From contig CAWHAM010000007.1 of NCBI GenBank assembly GCA_963827305.1, positions 14,812-78,811 on the forward strand: a stretch of 64,000 nucleotides of DNA, read 5' to 3'. The stretch comes from an uncultured Chloroflexia bacterium. Its GTDB lineage: Bacteria; Chloroflexota; Anaerolineae; Anaerolineales; Villigracilaceae. Under the pieces are notes generated by a model. The model had not been told where the DNA came from. It was given only the letters and a program-made list of their open reading frames with translations, and did not search any database. Below, one piece after another: positions 3,646-64,000 of the stretch. The first letter of the stretch is position 1, and every line of letters begins with the position of its first letter. Position numbers and translations under genes: made by a program.

Positions 3646-4632
3646 TCAATCCCTCAAGGCACGACCAGTCAGATTGAGAAAGACAGCTTCCAGGTCGGGT
3701 TCATGCACCTCGACCGACTCGACCTGGATCCCGGCTTCATCGGCCAGGCGCAGGATGAAAGGCATGGCCTTGCGGCCGCGCGTGGCATTGACCACCATCA
3801 ATCCGCTGACGTTGGTCTTGTTCCCGCCTTCTTCGCCTGGCGGATCGTAAATGGCCTTGGTGACGCCTTCCACAGAAGTGCGGATGTGCTCCAGTGTTCC
3901 GTTGCTGATGACTGCCTGACCTACCTTGAAGATCAGTCTATCCTGTTCGCCCACCTGCAGGATCAGGTCGCCCGGGGTACCCATGGCGATGATCTCGCCG
4001 TGATCGATGATCCCGACCCGGTCGCTCAATTCCTGGGCTTCCTCCATCAGATGCGTGGTATAGAGCACGGTCATGCCGCGTTGTTCGCGCAGCTGCTTGA
4101 CGGTATCGAGAATGCGCCGCCGGCTTTGCGGGTCGATCCCCACCGTTGGTTCATCCATGTAAATGACCTGTGGATCGTGCAGCAGCCCGGCGGCAATATT
4201 GATGCGCCGCTTCATCCCGCCTGAAAAGGTTTCGATCCGGTCGAATTGGCGATCGCTCAGTTCCACAAATTCAAGCATGGTATCAATCCGTTTGGCCAGG
4301 TCCTTCCCGCCCAGCCCGTACATACGGCCAAAGAACTCCAGGTTTTGGCGTGCATTCAAGGTTGGGTAAAGGGCAATTTCCTGCGGGACAACTCCCAGCA
4401 GGCGCTTGGCTTCCAGCGGCTGGCGGGTGATCGAGTAACCGCCGATGGTTGCATCTCCACTGGTTGGCTCGAGCAGACCGCTGATCATCGAGATGGTGGT
4501 GGTTTTGCCGGCCCCGTTCGGGCCCAGCAGGCTGAAGATCTCACCCTTTTGGATATCGAACGATATCCCTTTCACGGCGGTCAAGTCGCCATATTTCTTG
4601 ACCAGATTTTTTACTTCGAGTATGGCTGTCAT
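3646..4632 (-). CDS. ABC transporter ATP-binding protein (ABC-2/DrrA-like, with C-terminal extra domain)
   Basis: Walker A GPNGAGKTTT, signature SGGMKRR, Walker B VIYMDEPTVGID, H-loop TTHLMEE, plus a roughly 100-aa C-terminal extension. Confidence 0.95.
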   Translation of the reverse strand: MTAILEVKNLVKKYGDLTAVKGISFDIQKGEIFSLLGPNGAGKTTTISMISGLLEPTSGDATIGGYSITRQPLEAKRLLGVVPQEIALYPTLNARQNLEFFGRMYGLGGKDLAKRIDTMLEFVELSDRQFDRIETFSGGMKRRINIAAGLLHDPQVIYMDEPTVGIDPQSRRRILDTVKQLREQRGMTVLYTTHLMEEAQELSDRVGIIDHGEIIAMGTPGDLILQVGEQDRLIFKVGQAVISNGTLEHIRTSVEGVTKAIYDPPGEEGGNKTNVSGLMVVNATRGRKAMPFILRLADEAGIQVESVEVHEPDLEAVFLNLTGRALRD

Positions 4633-7399: not shown

Positions 7400-8746
7400 T
7401 CAATACGTTCCGGTAGAGGAAAAGCTTCCTTCATCCTTAAGGTAAACGTTAAAGAATTGCAAGACCGTGGCGTTCAGCTTCTCAATGGTGGAAAATGGAT
7501 CTGCATCCGGTCCGTTGTAGGCATGGAACGAGCCGTTCAACAGGGACGTCAATAAAGGTGAACTTAGGGCGAGATCGGTGAAACTCAGATGATTTGTCCC
7601 CGGATAATCGATTTCGTAGGCATGGGGAGCAGTTGCAACTACATGTTTCAATGCGATGACATCGGCCGCATTCGGAACGGCTGCCATCCCAGGTGCCAAT
7701 GCATCCGACACAATGATCAGGATCGGGACAGGAAAAGGAGTGTTATTGAGCACCGGCTTGCCATTCACCACACCCACATACTCACCGGCTGGATCGGCAT
7801 CCAGGTCAATTACCGCACCGATGTCGTTTTTCCCACTGGCGATGCGCTGCCTGGCAGCCTGGGCGCTTGACTCTCCACCCAGGGAGTGTCCCATCAGACC
7901 GATTTTCTTGACATCCACCAGGCGATAAACGTCAGCCGAGCCGCTGCCTTGAGCATAGGCAAAGATCGTATCAAGGACGAAATTGATGTCAGTGATTTGA
8001 ACGGCCATCCATGAATGCTCGATTTGAAGGTCCGTGGCATAATCATACTTATTAGAGTTGAGGTTATACAACTCCTGCCGGATGGATGGCGACTGGATCA
8101 CCAAACGCCCGTCACTGCCGCGGGTGAAAAGGGCGATGTAGGGATTGTCGATGGAGCAGACCACATAACCATTGCTGGCTAAGTCCAGGAAGGTCGATCT
8201 ATTCTGTGTTTTCATCCCCATGGAACCGTGGGAAAATACGACCAGGGGGTATTTTTGACCGCCGGTTGAATCCGCCGGATACCAGAATTCCACGTTGACC
8301 TTTCTCTTCTCGCCCGTGTTGGTAAAGGTTTCGGTCTGGTTCTGATTGATATATGAAAACATGGCCGTGGCAACCGGATGCTTTCCGGTCACCCTGGGCT
8401 GCGGATGCTGCGGGAAAACAAGGGCGGGGATTACGACGATGACAACAAGCAGCAGCGTACCAATTGCCTTGGACACGATCGGTCCGGTTTTATATTCTTT
8501 TCTCTCCACCGGTTTGCGGATCAACGTCCAGGCGCCCAGCGCGGCCCAGATGAACAGCAAGATGGCCAGCAAGTACCAGCGGAAGCCCCACTGGATGACT
8601 GAGACCAACGTGAATGTGACGAAAGCAGCCAACGCGCCGATCCGGATAAAGCTTTTGACTTTTTTCTGGTTCGATTTCGTAATAATGCAATATGTTGCGA
8701 ATGCAACTTCAATGACGAAAGTAATAATCAGAATGATTGTTCCCAT
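7400..8746 (-). CDS. membrane-anchored alpha/beta hydrolase (PAF-acetylhydrolase/dienelactone-hydrolase-like)
   Basis: Four N-terminal TM helices, then PLVVFSHG and the nucleophile elbow GHSLGG. Confidence 0.75.
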   Translation of the reverse strand: MGTIILIITFVIEVAFATYCIITKSNQKKVKSFIRIGALAAFVTFTLVSVIQWGFRWYLLAILLFIWAALGAWTLIRKPVERKEYKTGPIVSKAIGTLLLVVIVVIPALVFPQHPQPRVTGKHPVATAMFSYINQNQTETFTNTGEKRKVNVEFWYPADSTGGQKYPLVVFSHGSMGMKTQNRSTFLDLASNGYVVCSIDNPYIALFTRGSDGRLVIQSPSIRQELYNLNSNKYDYATDLQIEHSWMAVQITDINFVLDTIFAYAQGSGSADVYRLVDVKKIGLMGHSLGGESSAQAARQRIASGKNDIGAVIDLDADPAGEYVGVVNGKPVLNNTPFPVPILIIVSDALAPGMAAVPNAADVIALKHVVATAPHAYEIDYPGTNHLSFTDLALSSPLLTSLLNGSFHAYNGPDADPFSTIEKLNATVLQFFNVYLKDEGSFSSTGTY

Positions 8747-48017: not shown

Positions 48018-48557
48018 CTACAATCCACTCTTCCTGGTCACTGGGCCGGGCTTCTTTCCCGGGCGGATGTAACCAGCCGGAAGTTCAATCGGCATTCTCC
48101 GGTCTCGGAGCATTTTTAATAATACCCGAACGCGTTCTTTTCCAGGCAGGCGCGCATCAAAAATGGCTTCATACCCTGCAAACGGTCCCGAATGCACCAG
48201 GACGGTTTCGCCGGCTTTAAGCACATCGAATAATTCCCCACCGGCTGAGTTTATTTCTTCCACACGCTGCCGGATGGCATGGATCAAGCCGTCCGGTATA
48301 AAAGCCGGCTCACCTCCGAACGCGATCAGGCCGGCAGAGCCAGGCACATATTGCAGGGCCGACATGCCCATTTCCTCCAGATCTGCCTGGACAAAGATAT
48401 ACCCTGGGAAGTAAGGCCTGACCGGTTGGGCCCGCGGGTTGACAACCTGCACCCGGATGCGTGGGGCAAATGTCTCGATCCTGCGGAGTTCAAGTTGTTC
48501 AGCCAGCAATTTTTCCTTATGGGGCTTGCTGTGCAGCACATACCAATAAGCAGTCAT
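48018..48557 (-). CDS. specialised NusG paralog (RfaH/UpxY/LoaP-type; NGN plus KOW)
   Basis: 179 aa. NGN start WYVLHSKPHKEK, PGYIFV, KOW GETVLVHSGPFAGYEAIF. First gene of the sugar-modification operon, with a 3-nt gap to the epimerase gene. Confidence 0.8.
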   Translation of the reverse strand: MTAYWYVLHSKPHKEKLLAEQLELRRIETFAPRIRVQVVNPRAQPVRPYFPGYIFVQADLEEMGMSALQYVPGSAGLIAFGGEPAFIPDGLIHAIRQRVEEINSAGGELFDVLKAGETVLVHSGPFAGYEAIFDARLPGKERVRVLLKMLRDRRMPIELPAGYIRPGKKPGPVTRKSGL

Positions 48558-48809: not shown

Positions 48810-49150
48810 TTCCCTGTCGGTTGCAGGGGACAGGACATGCCTGGCCCGAATAAGGGGAAACCAGCGTCTAAAATAAAAGACGCCCTCTTGGACGTCTTTT
48901 CAGTTCCGGGGGCTGGACTCGCCTGTCCCCTGCAAGGGGAAACCAGTGCCTAAAATAAAAGACGCTCTCTTGGACGTCTTTTCATTTCCGGGGGCTCGAC
49001 TCGCCTGTCCCCTGCAAGGGGAAACCAGCGTCTACATCAAAAACGCCCTCTCGGACGTTTTTGATTAGTTGCCCGGGCTGGACTCGCCTGTCTCCTGCAA
49101 GGAGAAACCAGCGCCTAAAATAAAAGGCGCCCTCTTGGACGTCTTTTCAG
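48810..49150 (-). repeat. tandem array of four ~82-nt units downstream of tRNA-Met; each holds a terminator-like hairpin plus a partial tRNA 3' third split by a 19-nt insertion
   Basis: Units at 49069-49150, 48986-49068 and 48904-48985, plus a degenerate unit at 48810-48903. Each contains GGGGGCTGGACTCG (the tRNA 3' end, plus strand). Confidence 0.85.
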
Positions 49151-49222
49151 TTGCGGGGGCTGGACTCGAACCAGCGACCTCCAGGTTATGAGCCTGACGA
49201 GCTGCCACTGCTCTACCCCGCG
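49151..49222 (-). tRNA. tRNA-Met (CAT), initiator type
   Basis: CGCGGGGTAGAGCAGTGGCAGCTCGTCAGGCTCATAACCTGGAGGTCGCTGGTTCGAGTCCAGCCCCCGCAA folds as a cloverleaf. C1xA72 mismatch and a CGCGGGG/CCCCGCA acceptor, as in bacterial tRNA-fMet. The 29:41 pair is A:U rather than G:C. CCA is not encoded. Confidence 0.85.
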
Positions 49223-54991: not shown

Positions 54992-56428
54992 ATGCAAACG
55001 ATTCCGAGTGAGTTTCTGGAAATTGATCGCAAGGCGCGCGTCTACATGCCCTACCAGGACCTGTCAAGGCGTCCACCCACGGAACGCGTCTGTGACTTCG
55101 GCGACGTGATTATTCCCCTCGATTCTGACCGGGCCATGTTGGAGGCCTCGCGTTGCATCCATTGCCCCGACCCGGCTCCCTGCATGTTGGCCTGTCCCGC
55201 CCATAACGATATCCCGTCCGCGATGTGGTTGATTGAACAGGGCCGTTACGTGGAAGCCGCCGAGCTTTATCGCCAAACCTCCTCCCTGCCGGAAATTTGC
55301 TCGCGCGTTTGTCCGCAAGATCAGCTCTGTCAGGGTTCCTGCGTTCTCAATAAGACCGAGGAGCCGGTGCTGTGCGGCCCGTTGGAAACCTTCGTGACCT
55401 GCTACGAACGCAAGACAGCCGGGGTGGCCATCCCGGTTGGGAAACCGACCGGTCGGAAGGTTGCCATTGTCGGAGCCGGACCGGCCGGTTTGGGCTGCGC
55501 CGAGCAACTCTTCCAGCTGGGCCACTCTGTCACTTTTTTCGACTCCAAGCCAGCCCCCGGCGGGTTGCTGGTCTATGGCATTCCAAACTTCAAACTGGCC
55601 AAGGAAGTGTTCTTCTGCCGTTGGGGTGATTTCGAAAAAGCCGGCGCAAGTTTCATCGGCAACACCTATATTGGCCAAAGCAAGACAATCGACCAGTTAT
55701 TTGAAGAAGGTTTTGATGCAGTATTCGTCGGCGTCGGAGTAGGTATTGACTCCAGAATGGATACGCCGGGTGAGGACTTGCCGGGTGTGTATGAAGCCAC
55801 CGATTTTCTGATGCGCGCCAATACTGAACTGAATCTGCTTCCCGAAAGCAAGCGCGAACGCCCGACCCTCGGAAAACGTGTGGTGGTGATTGGCGGCGGC
55901 GATACGGCCTCGGATTGTCTGCGTTCCGCATTGCGTCTGGGTGCCGAGGAAGTGACCTGTCTTTATCGCCGCACCGAAAAGGAGATGCCAGGTGGCAAGA
56001 AGGATCGCCAAATGGCAAAAGAAGAAGGGGCCAAGTACCGCTTCTTGACCCAGCCGGTGAAATTTATCGCCGATGAGGCTAACCACCTGGCCGCCATCGA
56101 GTGCATTGAAATGAGATTGGGGGAACCCGACGCCAAAGGCCGGCGAAAACCGATTCCTGTGGAAGGCTCCAACTTCTCTATTGCAGTGGATACGGCCATC
56201 AAGGCTCTCGGCTATTGGCCAGACCCGGTCATCGGGAAGACGACTCCCGGCCTGGAAACCCACGATTACGGTCTCGTCAGTGTAGTCGACAAGGAGACCG
56301 GCGCCACTACCCGCGCAGGGGTCTTCGCCGCCGGGGATGGCGTCACCGGGCCGGATCTGGTTGTTACTGCCATGGTCGGAGGGCGGAAAGCCGCCCAGGC
56401 CATCGATGAATACCTGAAAGCGAAATAA
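54992..56428 (+). CDS. glutamate synthase small-subunit-like NAD(P)H oxidoreductase (GltD family), stand-alone
   Basis: Two Cys clusters (CIHCPDPAPCMLACP, CSRVCPQDQLCQGSC), then VAIVGAGPAGL and VVVIGGGDTA dinucleotide motifs. No gltB nearby. Confidence 0.85.
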   Translation: MQTIPSEFLEIDRKARVYMPYQDLSRRPPTERVCDFGDVIIPLDSDRAMLEASRCIHCPDPAPCMLACPAHNDIPSAMWLIEQGRYVEAAELYRQTSSLPEICSRVCPQDQLCQGSCVLNKTEEPVLCGPLETFVTCYERKTAGVAIPVGKPTGRKVAIVGAGPAGLGCAEQLFQLGHSVTFFDSKPAPGGLLVYGIPNFKLAKEVFFCRWGDFEKAGASFIGNTYIGQSKTIDQLFEEGFDAVFVGVGVGIDSRMDTPGEDLPGVYEATDFLMRANTELNLLPESKRERPTLGKRVVVIGGGDTASDCLRSALRLGAEEVTCLYRRTEKEMPGGKKDRQMAKEEGAKYRFLTQPVKFIADEANHLAAIECIEMRLGEPDAKGRRKPIPVEGSNFSIAVDTAIKALGYWPDPVIGKTTPGLETHDYGLVSVVDKETGATTRAGVFAAGDGVTGPDLVVTAMVGGRKAAQAIDEYLKAK

Positions 56429-56435
56429 ATCAACT

Positions 56436-56470
56436 CGGGTAGCCAAATGGCTGCCCGATAATTTTATAAG
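56436..56470 (+). terminator. rho-independent terminator after the gltD-like gene
   Basis: CGGGTAGCC-AAAT-GGCTGCCCG followed by ATAATTTTAT. Confidence 0.55.
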
Positions 56471-56727
56471 GGCAATCGCCGACCCTGTTGGATCGGCGGT
56501 AAAAAGAGTCGGGTGCCCGGATTTGCGTCAGTCCCTAAATGGGAAACCGCCGACCCTTTTTGGATCGGCGGTAAAAAAAAGTCGGGGCGCCCGGATTTGC
56601 GTCAGTCCTTCAATGGGAAACCGCCAACCCTTTTTGGATCGGCGGTAAAAAAAAGTCGGGGCGCCCGGATTTGCGTCAGTCCCTCAATGAGAAACCGCCA
56701 ACCCTTTTTGGATCGGCGATAAAAAAA
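56471..56727 (-). repeat. tandem array of three ~73-nt units (plus a hairpin-only remnant) downstream of tRNA-Pro; same architecture as the tRNA-Met array
   Basis: Units at 56655-56727, 56581-56654 and 56508-56580, remnant at 56471-56507. Each unit starts (plus strand) with GTCGGGGCGCCCGGATTTG, which equals the tRNA-Pro 3' end. Confidence 0.85.
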
Positions 56728-56728
56728 G

Positions 56729-56803
56729 TCGGGGCGCCCGGATTTGAACCGGGGACCTCTGCGTCCCGAACGCAGCGCTCTAGCCGGGCTGAGCCACGCC
56801 CCG
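56729..56803 (-). tRNA. tRNA-Pro (CGG)
   Basis: CGGGGCGTGGCTCAGCCCGGCTAGAGCGCTGCGTTCGGGACGCAGAGGTCCCCGGTTCAAATCCGGGCGCCCCGA: 75 nt, cloverleaf, anticodon loop TTCGGGA. CCA is not encoded. Confidence 0.9.
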
Positions 56804-56953
56804 AAAAGTCCCACTCTATGGGACAAGCAAGGCGGGATTATAACTGTCTGCACCTGATTTGACAAGCTGTTTGCGGTATAATCCATTCGATATCTCGATT
56901 ACCCCGTAGGGGCACAGCGACGCTGTGCCCCTACCTTTGTGAGGAATTTTCCT

Positions 56954-59516
56954 ATGGTCGAACCTGAACCGACCGGCCCGGGGCCGGAACCAGTCAAACA
57001 AGTCATTGGCACCGTTCAGATGGCAGACATCGACGAGACCATGCGCATCGCCTACCTTGACTATGCCATGTCTGTCATCGTCGCGCGTGCCCTGCCGGAT
57101 GCGCGGGACGGATTGAAACCCGTCCACCGGCGGATCTTGTATGCCATGCAGGACATGGGCATCCGTGCCAATTCAGCTTTCAAGAAATCCGCCCGTATCG
57201 TCGGTGAAGTCCTGGGCAAGTATCACCCGCATGGCGATCTGGCTGTCTACGAGTTCGATGGCGCGCATGGCTCAGGATTTCTCCATGCGATATCTTCTGG
57301 TGGATGGCCAGGGCAACTTTGGGTCGGTGGATGGCGATGCACCCGCAGCCATGCGTTACACCGAAGCCCGCCTGCACAGAATGGCCGAGGAATTGCTGGC
57401 CGATCTTGACAAGGATACGGTGGACTTCACTGATAATTTCGATGGTTCGCTCAAAGAACCGCTGGTTCTGCCTTCCCGTCTCCCTAACCTGCTGCTCAAT
57501 GGATCGTCTGGGATTGCCGTTGGCATGGCAACCAATATCCCGCCACATAATCTCAAGGAACTGGCCGCGGCACTGATCTACCTTATCAACAACTACGATA
57601 CGATGGACGAAGTCCCGATCGAGTTTTTGATGAAATTCATTCCCGGACCGGATTTTCCCACCGGCGGTATCATCGTCGGAACAGAGGGTATCGAAGCCGC
57701 CTACGGGTCCGGGAAGGGCCGCATTGTGGTGCGTGGTAAAGCCCACATCGAAGAGATGTCCGGCAATCGCTACCGCATCGTCATCACCGAAATCCCCTAT
57801 CAGGTCAACAAGGCCACCCTGATCGAACGCATCGCCGACCTTGTCCGTGATGAGAAGATCGACTCCATCTCGGACCTGCGGGACGAGTTTGACCGGCGTG
57901 GCATGAGCATCGTCATCGAGCTGAAACGCGGCGCCCAGCCCAAGAAGGTGCTCAACCAGCTCTACAAGTACACGGCCCTCCAATCCACCTTTGGCGTACA
58001 GATGCTCGCCCTCGTTGACGGCGAACCGCGTCTTCTCCCGCTCAAACGGGCGCTGCAAATATTCATCGAACACCGCCAGACCGTGCTCACCCGCCGCACC
58101 CAATTCGAACTGGAAAAAGCCCGTGCACGTGCCCATATCCTGGAAGGTCTGACGATCGCCCTATCCAACCTGGATGCTGTCATTCAGACCATCCGCGAAT
58201 CCCCGGACGCGGATATGGCCAAGGAACGCCTGATGAAGCGTTTCAAATTGTCCGATCTCCAGGCCCAGGCCATCCTGGACATGCAACTGCGCCGCCTGGC
58301 TGCCCTGGAACGCCAGAAAATCGAGGATGAATACAAACAGGTCAAACAACAGATCGTCCACTTCGAAGACCTGCTTGCCCATCCAAAGAAGATCCTGGCG
58401 CTCATTCAGGAGGATTTGCGGGAACTCTCCGATAAATATGGCGACGAGCGTCGCACGCACATCGCCGTCGAGGCCATCGAGAACCTGAGCGAATTGGACC
58501 TCGTGCCAGACGAGGCCGTGCTGATCTCGCTCACCGCCCAGGGCTACGTCAAGCGGGTTGCTGCCGCCGCCTACCGTTACCAGGTGAAAGGCGGCAAGGG
58601 TGTGACCGGTCATATGACCAAGGAAGAAGATGAGATCCTGACCCTCATCCCAGCGCGCTCGCTAGACACCATGCTGTTCTTTTCCGACAAGGGCAAGGTT
58701 TATTCTGAAAAGGTCTACCAGATCCCCGACGCCGACCGGGCTGCCAAAGGCATCCCTCTGGTGAATGTGTTGTCGCTGGAGCCTGGTGAGATCATCACCG
58801 CGGCAGTAGCTGTGCCAAACTTCGAGACTGTGGAATTCATAACGCTTGCCACGCGCAATGGAAAGATCAAGCGCATGGCCCTGTCCGAGCTGGTGGCGGT
58901 CCGTCCCTCCGGCATCATCGCCATCGGGCTGGAAGAAGGTGATGAATTGGACTGGGCGCGCCTGACGCATGGCGACAACGAAATCATCCTTGTCACCGAG
59001 CAGGGGCAGGCACTGCGTTTCGCCGAGGACGAAGTCCGCTCGATGGGACGCTCGGCCGGCGGCGTGACCGGTATCCGGCTGGCCACCAATGACAAAGTCA
59101 CCAGCATGGAAGTCATTGAGGAAGGCGGCGATCTTTTACTGGTGACAACCCAGGGCTTTGGCAAGCGCACGGCTCTGACGGAGTACCCGGTCAAAGGGCG
59201 CGCCACCGGCGGAGTACAGACCATCGCCCGCGCCGCCGCCGACAAGATTGGCACCATCACATCCGCACGCGTCGTCCAGGAAGTCGACGATCTGACCATC
59301 ATCACCGCCAATGGCATGGTCCTGCGCACCAGGGTCAAGGATGTGAAACAAGCCGGGCGCGCCACGCGCGGCGTCCATCTGATGGAGGTCAAGGAAGGGG
59401 ACCGGGTGGTATCCATCGCCCGCATCGCCACTGCCGAGCTCAAAAAAGCCGGTGCCAGCACCAACGGCGAGCCTGGCCCTGAGCCAGGCAAACAGTTCGA
59501 ATTACCAAATATATAA
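56954..59516 (+). CDS. gyrA: DNA gyrase subunit A, with an apparent 1-nt insertion near 57254-57257
   Basis: The N-terminus ([33 protein letters not shown]...[12 protein letters not shown]) is in ORF 56939..57409. The rest ([23 protein letters not shown]...) is in ORF 57141..59516. ATG 56954 is preceded by GAGGA. Confidence 0.9.
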
Positions 59517-61732: not shown

Positions 61733-63010
61733 TTATAAGCCTTCCGTCAAGGTCTCCAAAAATTCCTGATTGTTCCTGGTCTTGGTGAGACGCTGCAGGA
61801 GCGCCTCGGTGGCCATGGAGGAATCCATGCCGGCGCCCTGGGGCGGCGGCGAAACCATCTGGATGTACATGCGTCGCATGATCCAAACGCGCTGGAGGAT
61901 ATCCGGGCCGAGCAGCAGGTCCTCGCGGCGGGTGGAGGAACGTTCGATATCCACAGCCGGGAAAATGCGGCGCTCCTGGAGCTTGCGGGTCAGGATCAAT
62001 TCCATGTTGCCGGTGCCCTTGAACTCCTCGTAGACCACGTCATCCAGGCGGGAGCCGGTTTCCACCAGGCAGGTGGCGATGATGGTGAGACTGCCACCTT
62101 CCTCCAGGTTGCGGGCCGCCCCGAAGAAATGCTTGGGCGGGTACAAGGCCGAGGGGTCCATACCACCGGAGAGCGTACGCCCGGATGGGTTGACGACCAG
62201 GTTGTAAGCGCGCGCCAAGCGGGTGATCGAATCCATCAGAATGACGACATGCCGGCCGATCTCGGTGAGGCGCTTGGCGCGGTCGAGGGCAATTTCGGCC
62301 GTGCGGACGTGCGAGGTGACCGGCTCATCGAAGGTGGAGGCGATCACTTCGGCATCCACCGAACGGTCCATGTCGGTCACTTCCTCAGGGCGTTCACCGA
62401 TCAAGGCAACCATCAGATGCACGTCCGGGTATTGCGTGGAAATTGCGTTGGCAATCTGCTTCAAGATGGTGGTCTTGCCGGCCTTGGGCGGAGAGACGAT
62501 CAGGCCGCGCTGGCCGCGACCGATCGGGACGATCAGGTTGATCAGGCGGGTAGAGAGGATATCGCCCTTGGTCTCCAGGTCGAAGCGCCGGTCGGGGAAG
62601 ATGGGGGTGAGGTCTTCGAAGCGGGGACGGCGGCGGGCGTCCTCGGGGTCGATCCCGTTGACGGATTCCACCTTGATCAGGCCCCAGTGCCGTTCCGATT
62701 CACGCGGCGGGCGGACGTGGCCGATGACCAGGTCACCGGAGCGCATCTCGTAACGCCTGAGCTGGGCCTGGCTGACATAGACGTCATCTTCACTGATGCT
62801 GTAACGGGCCGAGCGCAGGAAACCGATGCCCTCGCTCATGATCTCGAGGATGCCACCGCGCATGTCAATGCCCTGCCGGGCAGCCTCTTCCTGGCAAATG
62901 GACAGGATGAGGGCCTCCTTCTTCAGGCGGTGGGCATTGACCACGTTGAATTCCTTGGCGATATTGCGCAATTCGGCCAAGGGCTTGTTTTCAAGTTCAA
63001 GTATGTTCAT
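61733..63010 (-). CDS. rho: transcription termination factor Rho
   Basis: 425 aa. Rho N-domain and CSD-like RNA-binding domain, Walker A PPKAGKTT, Q/R loops, C-terminal consensus. Confidence 0.95.
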   Translation of the reverse strand: MNILELENKPLAELRNIAKEFNVVNAHRLKKEALILSICQEEAARQGIDMRGGILEIMSEGIGFLRSARYSISEDDVYVSQAQLRRYEMRSGDLVIGHVRPPRESERHWGLIKVESVNGIDPEDARRRPRFEDLTPIFPDRRFDLETKGDILSTRLINLIVPIGRGQRGLIVSPPKAGKTTILKQIANAISTQYPDVHLMVALIGERPEEVTDMDRSVDAEVIASTFDEPVTSHVRTAEIALDRAKRLTEIGRHVVILMDSITRLARAYNLVVNPSGRTLSGGMDPSALYPPKHFFGAARNLEEGGSLTIIATCLVETGSRLDDVVYEEFKGTGNMELILTRKLQERRIFPAVDIERSSTRREDLLLGPDILQRVWIMRRMYIQMVSPPPQGAGMDSSMATEALLQRLTKTRNNQEFLETLTEGL

Positions 63011-63299: not shown

Positions 63300-64000
63300 T
63301 CGCGCCACCCCCATAACTGGGGGCTTTCCCCCATTACTGGGGGCTTCCCCTTGCCCCACCCCCGACCCCTCCCCAAATCCTGCGGATTTAGGGAGGGGAG
63401 AACCTGACCCCACCCCCATTCTGGGGGCTTCCCCCATGCACCCTTCGCCCCATGGGGTGCAGGCGGGTACAGGCTGGGGGCTTCCCCTATTCACCCTTAG
63501 CCCCATGGGGGCAGGCGGGTACAGGCTACAGGCTTCTCCTGGCGCTGATCCCAAGCAGGAGAAGGATTTCTTTACAGCGCTATTAAAGTTTTAAGGTTCG
63601 GCACAGGTGAAACCCCCTCGGGGATTCCCAGCAACTCGTGTCCCACCCCCATAACTGGGGGCTTCCCCCATAACTGGGGGCTTCCCCCATGCTAGGGGTC
63701 CTGAAAGTGCACAGGACAGGCAAGCGGGATGCTGCGTGATCGCTGGGACTGCCAATCCTGAAAATACACAGGACTTTGGGGGCTGGAAGCCGCCTCGGGG
63801 AGTCCCAGCGACTCGTGTCGCTGGGACTGCCGATGGCCAGAGTACTGGCCACTTTGGCGGCTTGCCTGCCTGCGCCACTACCACAGGTACAGGTGCACCT
63901 GTGGCGCCCTGCTAATATGCCCTGACAAGAGTAGTCAGGACAGGCAGGGCAGGCAGGCACAGGTGAAGCCCCCTCGGGGAGTATTTGATATTTGAAAACA
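63300..64000. repeat. non-coding field of short GC-rich hairpin repeats (several families); runs to the window end
   Basis: CCCCCAT(A/T)ACTGGGGGCTT at 63308, 63328, 63413, 63646 and 63665. A 52-53-nt tandem duplicate at 63421-63473 and 63474-63525. GAAGCCCCCTCGGGGAGT-like copies at ~63607, ~63787 and ~63964. Perfect 11-bp hairpin at 63802-63827. Confidence 0.7.

Follow-up and report, generated by a model that had tools for sequence, protein, structure and literature searches.

In this study, we analyzed a stretch of 64,000 nucleotides (nt) from an uncultured bacterium of the Chloroflexota (contig CAWHAM010000007.1; hereafter the window), in which the gene for tRNA-Pro(CGG) is followed by a tandem array of units of about 73 nt that end in copies of the 3' end of the tRNA. 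We consider it probable that this array arose when an older "pseudo 3'-half" unit, present behind tRNA-Pro(CGG) in numerous members of a clade of the Anaerolineae, was amplified in tandem in a particular lineage. This reading builds on the anatomy of the units, their homology across loci, the variation of their copy number and the copying of units from units. For comparison, we used 77 metagenome contigs sharing the tRNA 5' half and, from species genomes, 12 orthologous tRNA-Pro/gyrA loci; single loci and contigs are cited below by L numbers.

Anatomy of the tRNA-Pro(CGG) array

Using Tandem Repeats Finder, the array was located at 56470-56746, with a period of 74 nt, 3.8 copies, 92% matches and a score of 445. 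It begins at the base directly after the tRNA gene, lies in the same orientation and consists of three units (B1 to B3) and a distal remnant:

56728/9-56803, minus strand: tRNA-Pro(CGG), no CCA encoded (ARAGORN; Rfam tRNA, 63 bits)
Within 56728-56803, minus strand: T arm of tRNA-Pro(CGG), CCCGG-TTCAAAT-CCGGG
56655-56727, minus strand: unit B1, 73 nt (T7 run 56721-56727; hairpin 56695-56720; TT 56693-56694; insert 56674-56692; 19/19 copy of the tRNA 3' end 56655-56673)
56581-56654, minus strand: unit B2, 74 nt (T8 run 56647-56654; hairpin 56621-56646; TT 56619-56620; insert 56600-56618; 19/19 copy 56581-56599)
56508-56580, minus strand: unit B3, 73 nt (T8 run, hairpin, TT, insert 56526-56544, decayed 18-nt copy 56508-56525)
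56471-56507, minus strand: distal remnant with T run and hairpin only, ACCGCCGATCC-AACA-GGGTCGGCGA, aligning to the first ~45 unit columns

A preliminary description of the locus, made from the sequence alone, had proposed exactly these limits for B1, B2, B3 and the remnant, and they were confirmed. The four-part plan that it gave also holds: a T run, a hairpin of 10-11 bp, TT plus 19 nt (a hairpin-plus-tail insert) and a copy of tRNA positions 56-74. This last copy matches the tRNA at 19 of 19 positions in B1 and B2, while one substitution and one deletion leave 17/19 in B3. The 19-mer CAAATCCGGGCGCCCCGAC thus occurs without mismatch three times in the window, in tRNA-Pro, B1 and B2. By chance, 0.06 matches with up to three mismatches would be expected, and none of 100 shuffled sequences (0/100) contained three or more. 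The copies are separated by spacers of 54 nt, which hold neither cargo nor integrase.

Short tandem repeats can be mis-assembled, and the contig of the closest relative found (L171) terminates within the first unit at its tRNA-fMet. However, substitutions distinguish the units from each other, and the same design recurs in dozens of independent assemblies, including megabase contigs. We therefore regard an assembly artefact as practically negligible.

A second array behind the initiator tRNA

Both tRNA genes of the window carry an array. The second one was likewise announced in the preliminary description, and Tandem Repeats Finder detected it at 48852-49168 with a period of 82 nt and 3.9 copies:

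49150-49222, minus strand: initiator-type tRNA-Met(CAT), the second array-bearing tRNA (ARAGORN)
48810-49149, minus strand: tRNA-fMet array, with units at 49068-49149, 48986-49067 and 48903-48985 and a decayed unit at 48810-48902

The initiator type was read from the sequence (C1 opposite A72). Each unit comprises a terminator, a copy of tRNA positions 44-55 (AGGCGCTGGTT), an insert (TCCCCTTGCAGGGGACAGG) and a copy of positions 56-74 (CGAGTCC...). The ~19-nt hairpin-plus-tail insert is homologous between the fMet and the Pro units, and the fMet insert resembles, for example, TCCCCCTGCGGGGGACTGACG in L098. With a related insert and an identical plan, the two unit types are not unrelated, which corrects the earlier view that their sequences had nothing in common. 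At both tRNAs, the break falls between T55 and C56 of the T loop, as had been stated for the window, but this break point is not universal, because the arrays of L094 and L112 described below copy only CCGCCCCGAC.

A fuller unit in related genomes

At many orthologous loci, a fuller version of the unit was found. It consists of a spacer with terminator hairpin, a copy of positions 44-55 (variable loop, 5' strand of the T stem, T54 and T55), an insert of ~19-21 nt, in which a tail of 4-7 nt follows a hairpin of 4-6 bp, and positions 56-74. In L092, the cleanest case, two copies of one terminator enclose AGGTCGGCGGTT, CCCCCTACGGGGACTATAG and CAACTCCGCCCGCCCCGAC in this order. The tRNA of L116 has a CCCGG T stem, and the 44-55 copy there follows its own gene and reads AGGTCCCGGTT. 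The units of L005, L103, L150 and L156 are similar to those of L092 and L116, and units of the window type also occur in L104, L117, L006, L149 and L142. In every 44-74 copy, the hairpin insert interrupts the sequence between positions 55 and 56, so that the identity with the tRNA is not contiguous.

These fuller units put a feature of the window array in a different light. The 3' strand of the unit hairpin plus TT had been described as a mimic of the tRNA's 5' T stem with T54-T55; in relatives, this part is an outright copy of positions 44-55, such as AGGTCGGCGGTT in L092. We infer that in the lineage of the window a deletion between two TCGGCGGT repeats fused the 3' strand of the terminator with the 44-55 copy, which would have produced the compact 73-nt unit. 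The apparent T-stem mimic would thus stem from the fusion of an L092-type 44-55 copy with the TCGGCGGT of the terminator.

Distribution and copy number of the units

Next, we counted copies of the last 18 nt of the tRNA, allowing up to four mismatches, at orthologous loci whose downstream sequence extends over at least 200 nt. One to four copies were present at 22 of the 78 tRNA-Pro loci, compared to 0.45 loci expected by chance, and further decayed units are visible by eye in L142, L147, L149, L157, L163 and L171. The comparison of orthologous loci proposed in the preliminary description thus revealed a variable unit number, ranging from 0 to 4 between relatives. In L171, which shows 88% amino acid identity in a neighbouring gene, a single decayed unit follows tRNA-Pro. 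L172 and L173 (77% amino acid identity) carry one fMet unit each. No copies were found behind tRNA-Leu(CAG) at 32 loci of more distant Anaerolineales.

Growth of the arrays

How the arrays grow can be read from L104, L150 and L157 with four, three and two units, respectively. All units of an array share two to three substitutions in their 3' copies which are absent from the tRNA, and the units are nearer to each other than to the tRNA gene. Derived substitutions that are common to the units but not to the tRNA show that units were copied from units. An independent array is present at tRNA-Pro in L094 (1563-1819) and L112, where units of 78-88 nt combine a long terminator hairpin with only CCGCCCCGAC, the last ~10 nt of tRNA-Pro. 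These two near-identical contigs differ in copy number (2.9 vs 3.9). Their array indicates that partial duplication of the tRNA 3' end together with the terminator arose more than once and with other break points. The architecture shared by the two window arrays had been taken to argue for a process rather than an accident; recurrence and a unit number of 0 to 4 in relatives bear this out, but the growth of arrays needs no process directed at the tRNA, as units are copied from units.

According to the scenario that we favour, the ancestral unit would have combined the spacer and terminator hairpin of the tRNA itself with copies of positions 44-55 and 56-74, separated by an insert of ~19 nt. 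Once a first unit was present, the locus would have held direct repeats (the 19-mer, later whole units), and unequal homologous recombination or replication slippage between them could have led to the gain and loss of units. Recombination of the same kind, or mere recency, would keep the proximal copies identical to the tRNA gene. The first unit itself may have originated either by partial tandem duplication or as a T-loop-class integrase att scar into which the small hairpin later inserted. However, the spacers of the units duplicate the local terminator, and this speaks for an origin by duplication in place.

Several observations weigh against an amplification of this simple kind. Differences from the tRNA rise with distance, namely 0, 0 and 2 in the window, followed by the remnant, and 1, 3 and 6 in L101. 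This trend fits decay at the edge, conversion by the gene or younger proximal units; however, proximal units that are nearest to the tRNA would also fit the formation of new units at the tRNA. Furthermore, plain duplication does not explain why two different tRNAs share the T55|C56 break and why hairpins of one kind occur there in more than 20 lineages. An uninterrupted 44-74 copy was found at none of the chromosomal loci. Finally, the stems of the small hairpin carry compensatory changes, and the design persists at two loci in relatives down to ~77% amino acid identity, which hints at selection on structure. The T55|C56 split may reflect survivorship, because an uninterrupted 31-nt repeat would recombine out, or a mini-element seeking hairpin loops or a dedicated nuclease or recombinase may have produced it.

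A small hairpin-plus-tail module

The insert of the array units belongs to a group of small modules that combine a short imperfect palindrome, forming a stem of 4-6 bp, with a conserved flanking tail such as CTGACG. Their stems vary by compensatory changes (TCCCC/GGGGA, TCTCC/GGAGA, TCCCAT/ATGGGA, CCCT/AGGG and CCAAT/ATTGG). A further module precedes the tRNA gene:

56804-56823, minus strand: 20-nt hairpin-plus-tail module TCCCATAGAGTGGGACTTTT in the 5' leader of tRNA-Pro, directly before +1 (folds with -6.6 kcal/mol)

The leader module is also present in L171, L121/L151, L149 and L095 (two in tandem), while most orthologous leaders are plain and read CCCGCCTTGCTTGTT|CGGGG. Corresponding insertions or deletions were observed between close relatives, with 21 nt distinguishing the window from L152 and 23 nt being present in L087 but not in L092. 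A 5-bp hairpin and the conserved tail TGCTTCGCGA make up the 23-nt module, which is part of tRNA-Pro units in L087, L163, L126 and L149; in L149 it sits within the 3' copy. Outside tRNA loci, it is found in two intergenic hairpin clusters (L091, ~3950-3990; L156, ~8580-8625), nested in larger inverted repeats. In the window, hairpin repeats of the type CCCCCATAACTGGGGGCTT and variants thereof, which resemble the leader and array modules, are clustered at 63300-63700 (also 63421-63527) in a non-coding stretch of ~1 kb upstream of rho (61733-63010, minus strand). A loose hairpin pattern was found 52 times in the window against ~32 expected, which is no clear enrichment.

As insertion polymorphisms at several sites, the modules behave like very small insertional elements and would be comparable to REP/BIME sequences or to the SDR elements of cyanobacteria. 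A bolder interpretation is that they form a new class of ultra-small hairpin-plus-tail elements (~19-23 nt) that, together with a cognate nuclease or recombinase, would insert in hairpin loops, split T loops at T55|C56 and thereby build cassettes of tRNA 3' ends; we regard this as rather improbable.

Related to this is the idea of a dedicated site-specific process, in which an enzyme (of the HUH/Y1 type as in IS200/IS605 or REP/RAYT, or a T-loop-class tyrosine recombinase) would recognise the hairpin with its tail and join the 3' end of the tail to T-loop position 56, each event adding a cassette of tRNA 3' end, terminator and hairpin. The junction of tail and C56 is indeed identical at tRNA-Pro and tRNA-fMet and across many lineages, and the modules act as insertions elsewhere, as seen in the leader, the 3' copy of L149, L087 compared with L092 and the two non-tRNA sites. 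On the other hand, the units of L104, L150 and L157 were copied from diverged units and not from the tRNA, the L094/L112 array has another break point and lacks a hairpin module, and a candidate enzyme was found in none of the 46 open reading frames of the window that were screened. The integrative elements described next bear on this idea as well.

Integrative elements at the same tRNA genes

Both tRNAs are integration hot spots in relatives (L053, L066, L142, L175 and L177). In L053 and L066, integrase or excisionase genes adjoin tRNA-Pro, as recognised by eye from the DNA without a family search. L142 contains a 12-kb island at tRNA-Pro with an old-type 3' copy distal to it. At tRNA-fMet, a tyrosine integrase element lies directly 3' of the gene in L177/L178 (11183-12178), and L175 (3222-3891) holds a decayed element with an integrase fragment of 80 amino acids and an excisionase-like HTH_17 gene. 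Cargo is also enclosed by the partial copies themselves: in L100, 2 kb lie between tRNA 3' copies (tRNA-oriented offsets ~190-2180), and in L101 a peptidase-like pseudogene of 1.6 kb lies between 3' copies (~330-2000) and is followed by two more units. The cargo of L100 apparently includes genes for an HTH protein and an ImmA-like peptidase (by eye, no family search).

For the dedicated process outlined above, these cargos of 2 kb and 1.6 kb, bounded by the same 3' copies, the status of both tRNAs as hot spots and the drop of identity to the tRNA with distance are points in favour. In contrast, the attP-like copies in IMG/VR are uninterrupted, and double-stranded circles of 73 bp are implausible substrates. 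Taken together, we judge such a process unlikely, and we return to the amplification of an older unit as the preferred explanation.

The attP-like copies of tRNA-Pro in IMG/VR (including L082 and L083) extend without interruption from about position 43/44 to the 3' end of the tRNA and thus have the same extent as the 44-74 copy of the units. Together with the old-type copy in L142, this makes an att scar of the T-loop class a plausible origin of the first partial copy. As a source of the hairpin-type junction, attP was rejected, since the attP-like partial copies of the tRNA 3' end in IMG/VR are all uninterrupted. One of two IMG/VR scans with tRNA 3' ends yielded only chance matches in coding sequences and one phage tRNA. 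Intact elements were also considered as carriers of a hairpin-type distal end, and two candidates were discarded: the fMet element of L177/L178 has no second tRNA copy within 10 kb, and the 12-kb island of L142 ends in a plain attR.

A more extreme version would see each unit as the remnant of a separate tRNA-integrated element that lost its interior. The extent of the partial copy (44-74) equals the attP-like identity block in L082 and L083, and relatives carry islands at the same tRNAs, including L142 with its old-type 3' copy beyond the 12-kb island. The units, however, are 92% alike including spacer and terminator and match the tRNA's own terminator, as expected from duplication in place, and no integrase remnant lies between them. 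Serial scars are therefore very unlikely.

The T arm of tRNA-Pro exists in two forms, GGCGG/CCGCC at most loci and CCCGG/CCGGG in the group of the window. The latter is found in the window (56728-56760), L002, L116, L121, L136, L142, L151, L152 and L171, as well as in the IMG/VR sequences L081-L083. The identity of the CCCGG-type arm of the window with the viral attP-like copies suggests that the 3' part of the tRNA-Pro gene was once replaced by an integrating element. The old-type 3' copy that L142 retains behind its unit reads CAACTCCGCC.

Transcription and possible function of the units

The array is wedged between tRNA-Pro and the terminator of a gltD-like gene, with gyrA on the opposite side:

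56837-56865, minus strand: promoter-like site of tRNA-Pro, TTGTCA-17 nt-TATAAT (11/12 consensus matches)
54992-56428, plus strand: gltD-like gene for an NADPH-dependent oxidoreductase (Fer4_20 and Pyr_redox_2 domains), convergent with tRNA-Pro
56435-56458, both strands: hairpin terminator common to the convergent gltD-like gene and the tRNA/array transcript (10-bp stem, T-rich tails on both strands)
57141-59516, plus strand: gyrA, divergent from tRNA-Pro and the anchor for orthologous loci

Between gyrA and gltD, the promoter of tRNA-Pro, which is kept at about 80 orthologous loci, is the sole promoter-like site found on the strand of the tRNA. Among the unit hairpins, only that of B1 passed a terminator scan. 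From this combination, transcription of the tRNA probably continues into the units, which would form a 3' trailer ending at the terminator in common with gltD. The units add weak terminator hairpins, and there is no indication of a coding or essential function.

Alternatively, the units could be functional RNA kept by selection, released from the tRNA transcript by processing as RtT-like small RNAs or as mimics of tRNA 3' halves (e.g. decoys for factors that bind or process tRNA). This idea gains from the compensatory changes that maintain the small hairpin, from the persistence of the design at two loci in diverged relatives, and from L103, L116 and L150, in which sequence 3' of the hairpin pairs with the 44-55 copy. 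The equivalent repeats of Escherichia coli are, moreover, annotated as small RNA RttR/RtT. However, the units are patchily distributed (22/78 loci), are gained and lost rapidly and include many decayed copies, and folding z-scores are weak (-0.3 to -1.9). In the window units, the GGCGG of the 44-55 copy is unable to pair with the CCGGG of the 3' copy and is instead locked in the big hairpin. In Rfam, only tRNA matches were obtained for these units, both at the gathering threshold and at E ≤ 10, with no match to RtT or any other RNA family. Overall, a functional RNA appears doubtful, and we consider amplification without such a role the better account.

Comparison with known systems

The closest parallel is found in E. 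coli. Repeats distal to tyrT-tyrV (178-bp unit; RtT/RttR, tpr) were reportedly described by Egan & Landy, Rossi et al. and Bösl & Kersten between about 1978 and 1991. To our knowledge, these repeats, known since the late 1970s, have been treated as a one-off curiosity. In our analysis, tyrV of E. coli K-12 (NC_000913.3, 1286700-1287330; L174) is followed by three units of 178 nt, all of them closing with the final 19 nt of the tRNA without a mismatch. One to nine units per genome, annotated as RtT small RNA (RttR), are present in 4726 of 5426 complete E. coli genomes. Within the unit, AAGGTTCGA, corresponding to the 5' strand of the T stem plus TTCGA, lies 67 nt upstream of the 19-mer; taken alone, this match is modestly significant, being reached in 73 of 2000 shuffles (3.7%). 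A 5-bp hairpin with the 4-nt tail GAGT stands right before the 19-mer. According to a preprint, rttR codes for rtT RNA, which has been tied to processing of the tyrT transcript and to the stringent response, with its mode of action unknown (10.1101/2024.07.17.603846).

Both systems share repeats directly 3' of a tRNA gene in the same orientation, tandem units ending in the last 19 nt of the tRNA, a polymorphic copy number, and a T loop split by an insert with a small hairpin and tail just before the 19-mer. They differ in unit length (178 vs 73 nt here), in the T-loop insert (~67 vs 19 nt here) and in the break, which follows TTCGA (position 58) in E. coli and T55 here. In addition, the E. coli system encodes CCA, has no terminator hairpin per unit, belongs to another phylum and shows neither sequence nor Rfam similarity to the window units. 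By analogy, the window array is best regarded as a Chloroflexi variant of the tyrT/RtT phenomenon, a kind of array that is already known. If the ultra-small elements considered above were real, the same logic would also account for the split T loop and the hairpin before the 19-mer in these 45-year-old E. coli repeats.

That such arrays recur in an unrelated phylum, at two tRNAs and at about a quarter of the orthologous loci taken from environmental assemblies, with several independent origins, suggests that tRNA 3' ends with their terminators are, in general, hot spots at which partial duplications arise and repeats expand. This has a bearing on the annotation of tRNAs and att sites and on the calling of genomic-island boundaries, and assembly is affected too, as one related contig ends inside such an array. 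The shared design of a split T loop with a hairpin at the break offers a testable handle to distinguish targeted insertion or recombination from selection on an RtT-like RNA.

T-loop-class integrase sites in tRNA genes were reportedly characterised by Williams in 2002. Like the attL/attR repeats of such integrases, the copies described here are direct repeats of the 3' part of a tRNA, with the extent of the viral attP-like copies and with islands at the same tRNAs in relatives. Unlike them, they lie 54 nt apart without cargo or integrase, are interrupted in the T loop and belong to units that duplicate the local terminator in tandem.

"Very small mobile repeated elements" (SDR) of cyanobacteria are said to have been reported by Elhai et al. 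in 2008. The ~19-23-nt modules resemble SDR elements and the REP/BIME mosaics of enterobacteria in being intergenic, nested or in tandem, in forming insertion polymorphisms and in their frequent position in the loops of larger hairpins; BIMEs also amplify in tandem. In contrast to REP and SDR, the present modules are tied to tRNA 3' copies. No RAYT/Y1 transposase was found among the 46 screened open reading frames of the window. The cyanobacterial SDR elements are cited in PMC3116915 as reference 43.

Other array-forming systems were considered and rejected. A CRISPR array does not fit because all parts of the units repeat and there are no variable spacers, and a type III toxin-antitoxin RNA array would have an adjacent toxin gene, which is missing. 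Integron attC sites were discarded on account of stem orientation and R-box. A Cas12k/TnpB guide-like arrangement, with GGTT as protospacer-adjacent motif and the 19-mer as guide, was dropped for lack of a scaffold and of a nuclease or transposon gene and because the spacing is variable. Finally, the insert is not a copy of the anticodon arm or of the 5' strand of the acceptor stem, to which it shows only G-run and C-run resemblance.

Genomic context and further observations

According to ARAGORN and Rfam, tRNA-Pro(CGG) and tRNA-Met(CAT), both on the minus strand, are the sole RNA genes of the window. The best relatives of its GyrA show 87-91% identity and belong to metagenome-assembled genomes of uncultured Chloroflexota/Anaerolineae. 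The gene content is of housekeeping character and includes rho, ruvA, ruvC, proC, ABC transporters, two-component systems and polysaccharide genes. Neither integrase nor transposase was detected among the 46 of the 59 long open reading frames that were screened against Pfam. No database record matches the gltD-like protein exactly.

Behind the tRNA-Pro array or terminator, most relatives carry a conserved promoter and an M-box (Mg2+) riboswitch with 131 bits (L005, 3219-3387; also L003, L004, L099, L150 and many others). The window and a few relatives have a gltD-like gene at this place instead. Downstream (3') of the M-box, L003, L004, L103, L138, L148 and L163 contain hairpin-forming insertions/deletions or tandem copies of 25-28 nt, e.g. 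CCCGTGCTGGAACCGGGACTACCGTG. They differ among close relatives and represent another small repeat family.

Directly 3' of the tRNA-fMet array, a paralogue of NusG (179 amino acids; 48018-48557, minus strand) is encoded, followed by genes for a sugar epimerase and an aminotransferase. This protein may be a LoaP/UpxY-like antiterminator at the head of a polysaccharide operon.

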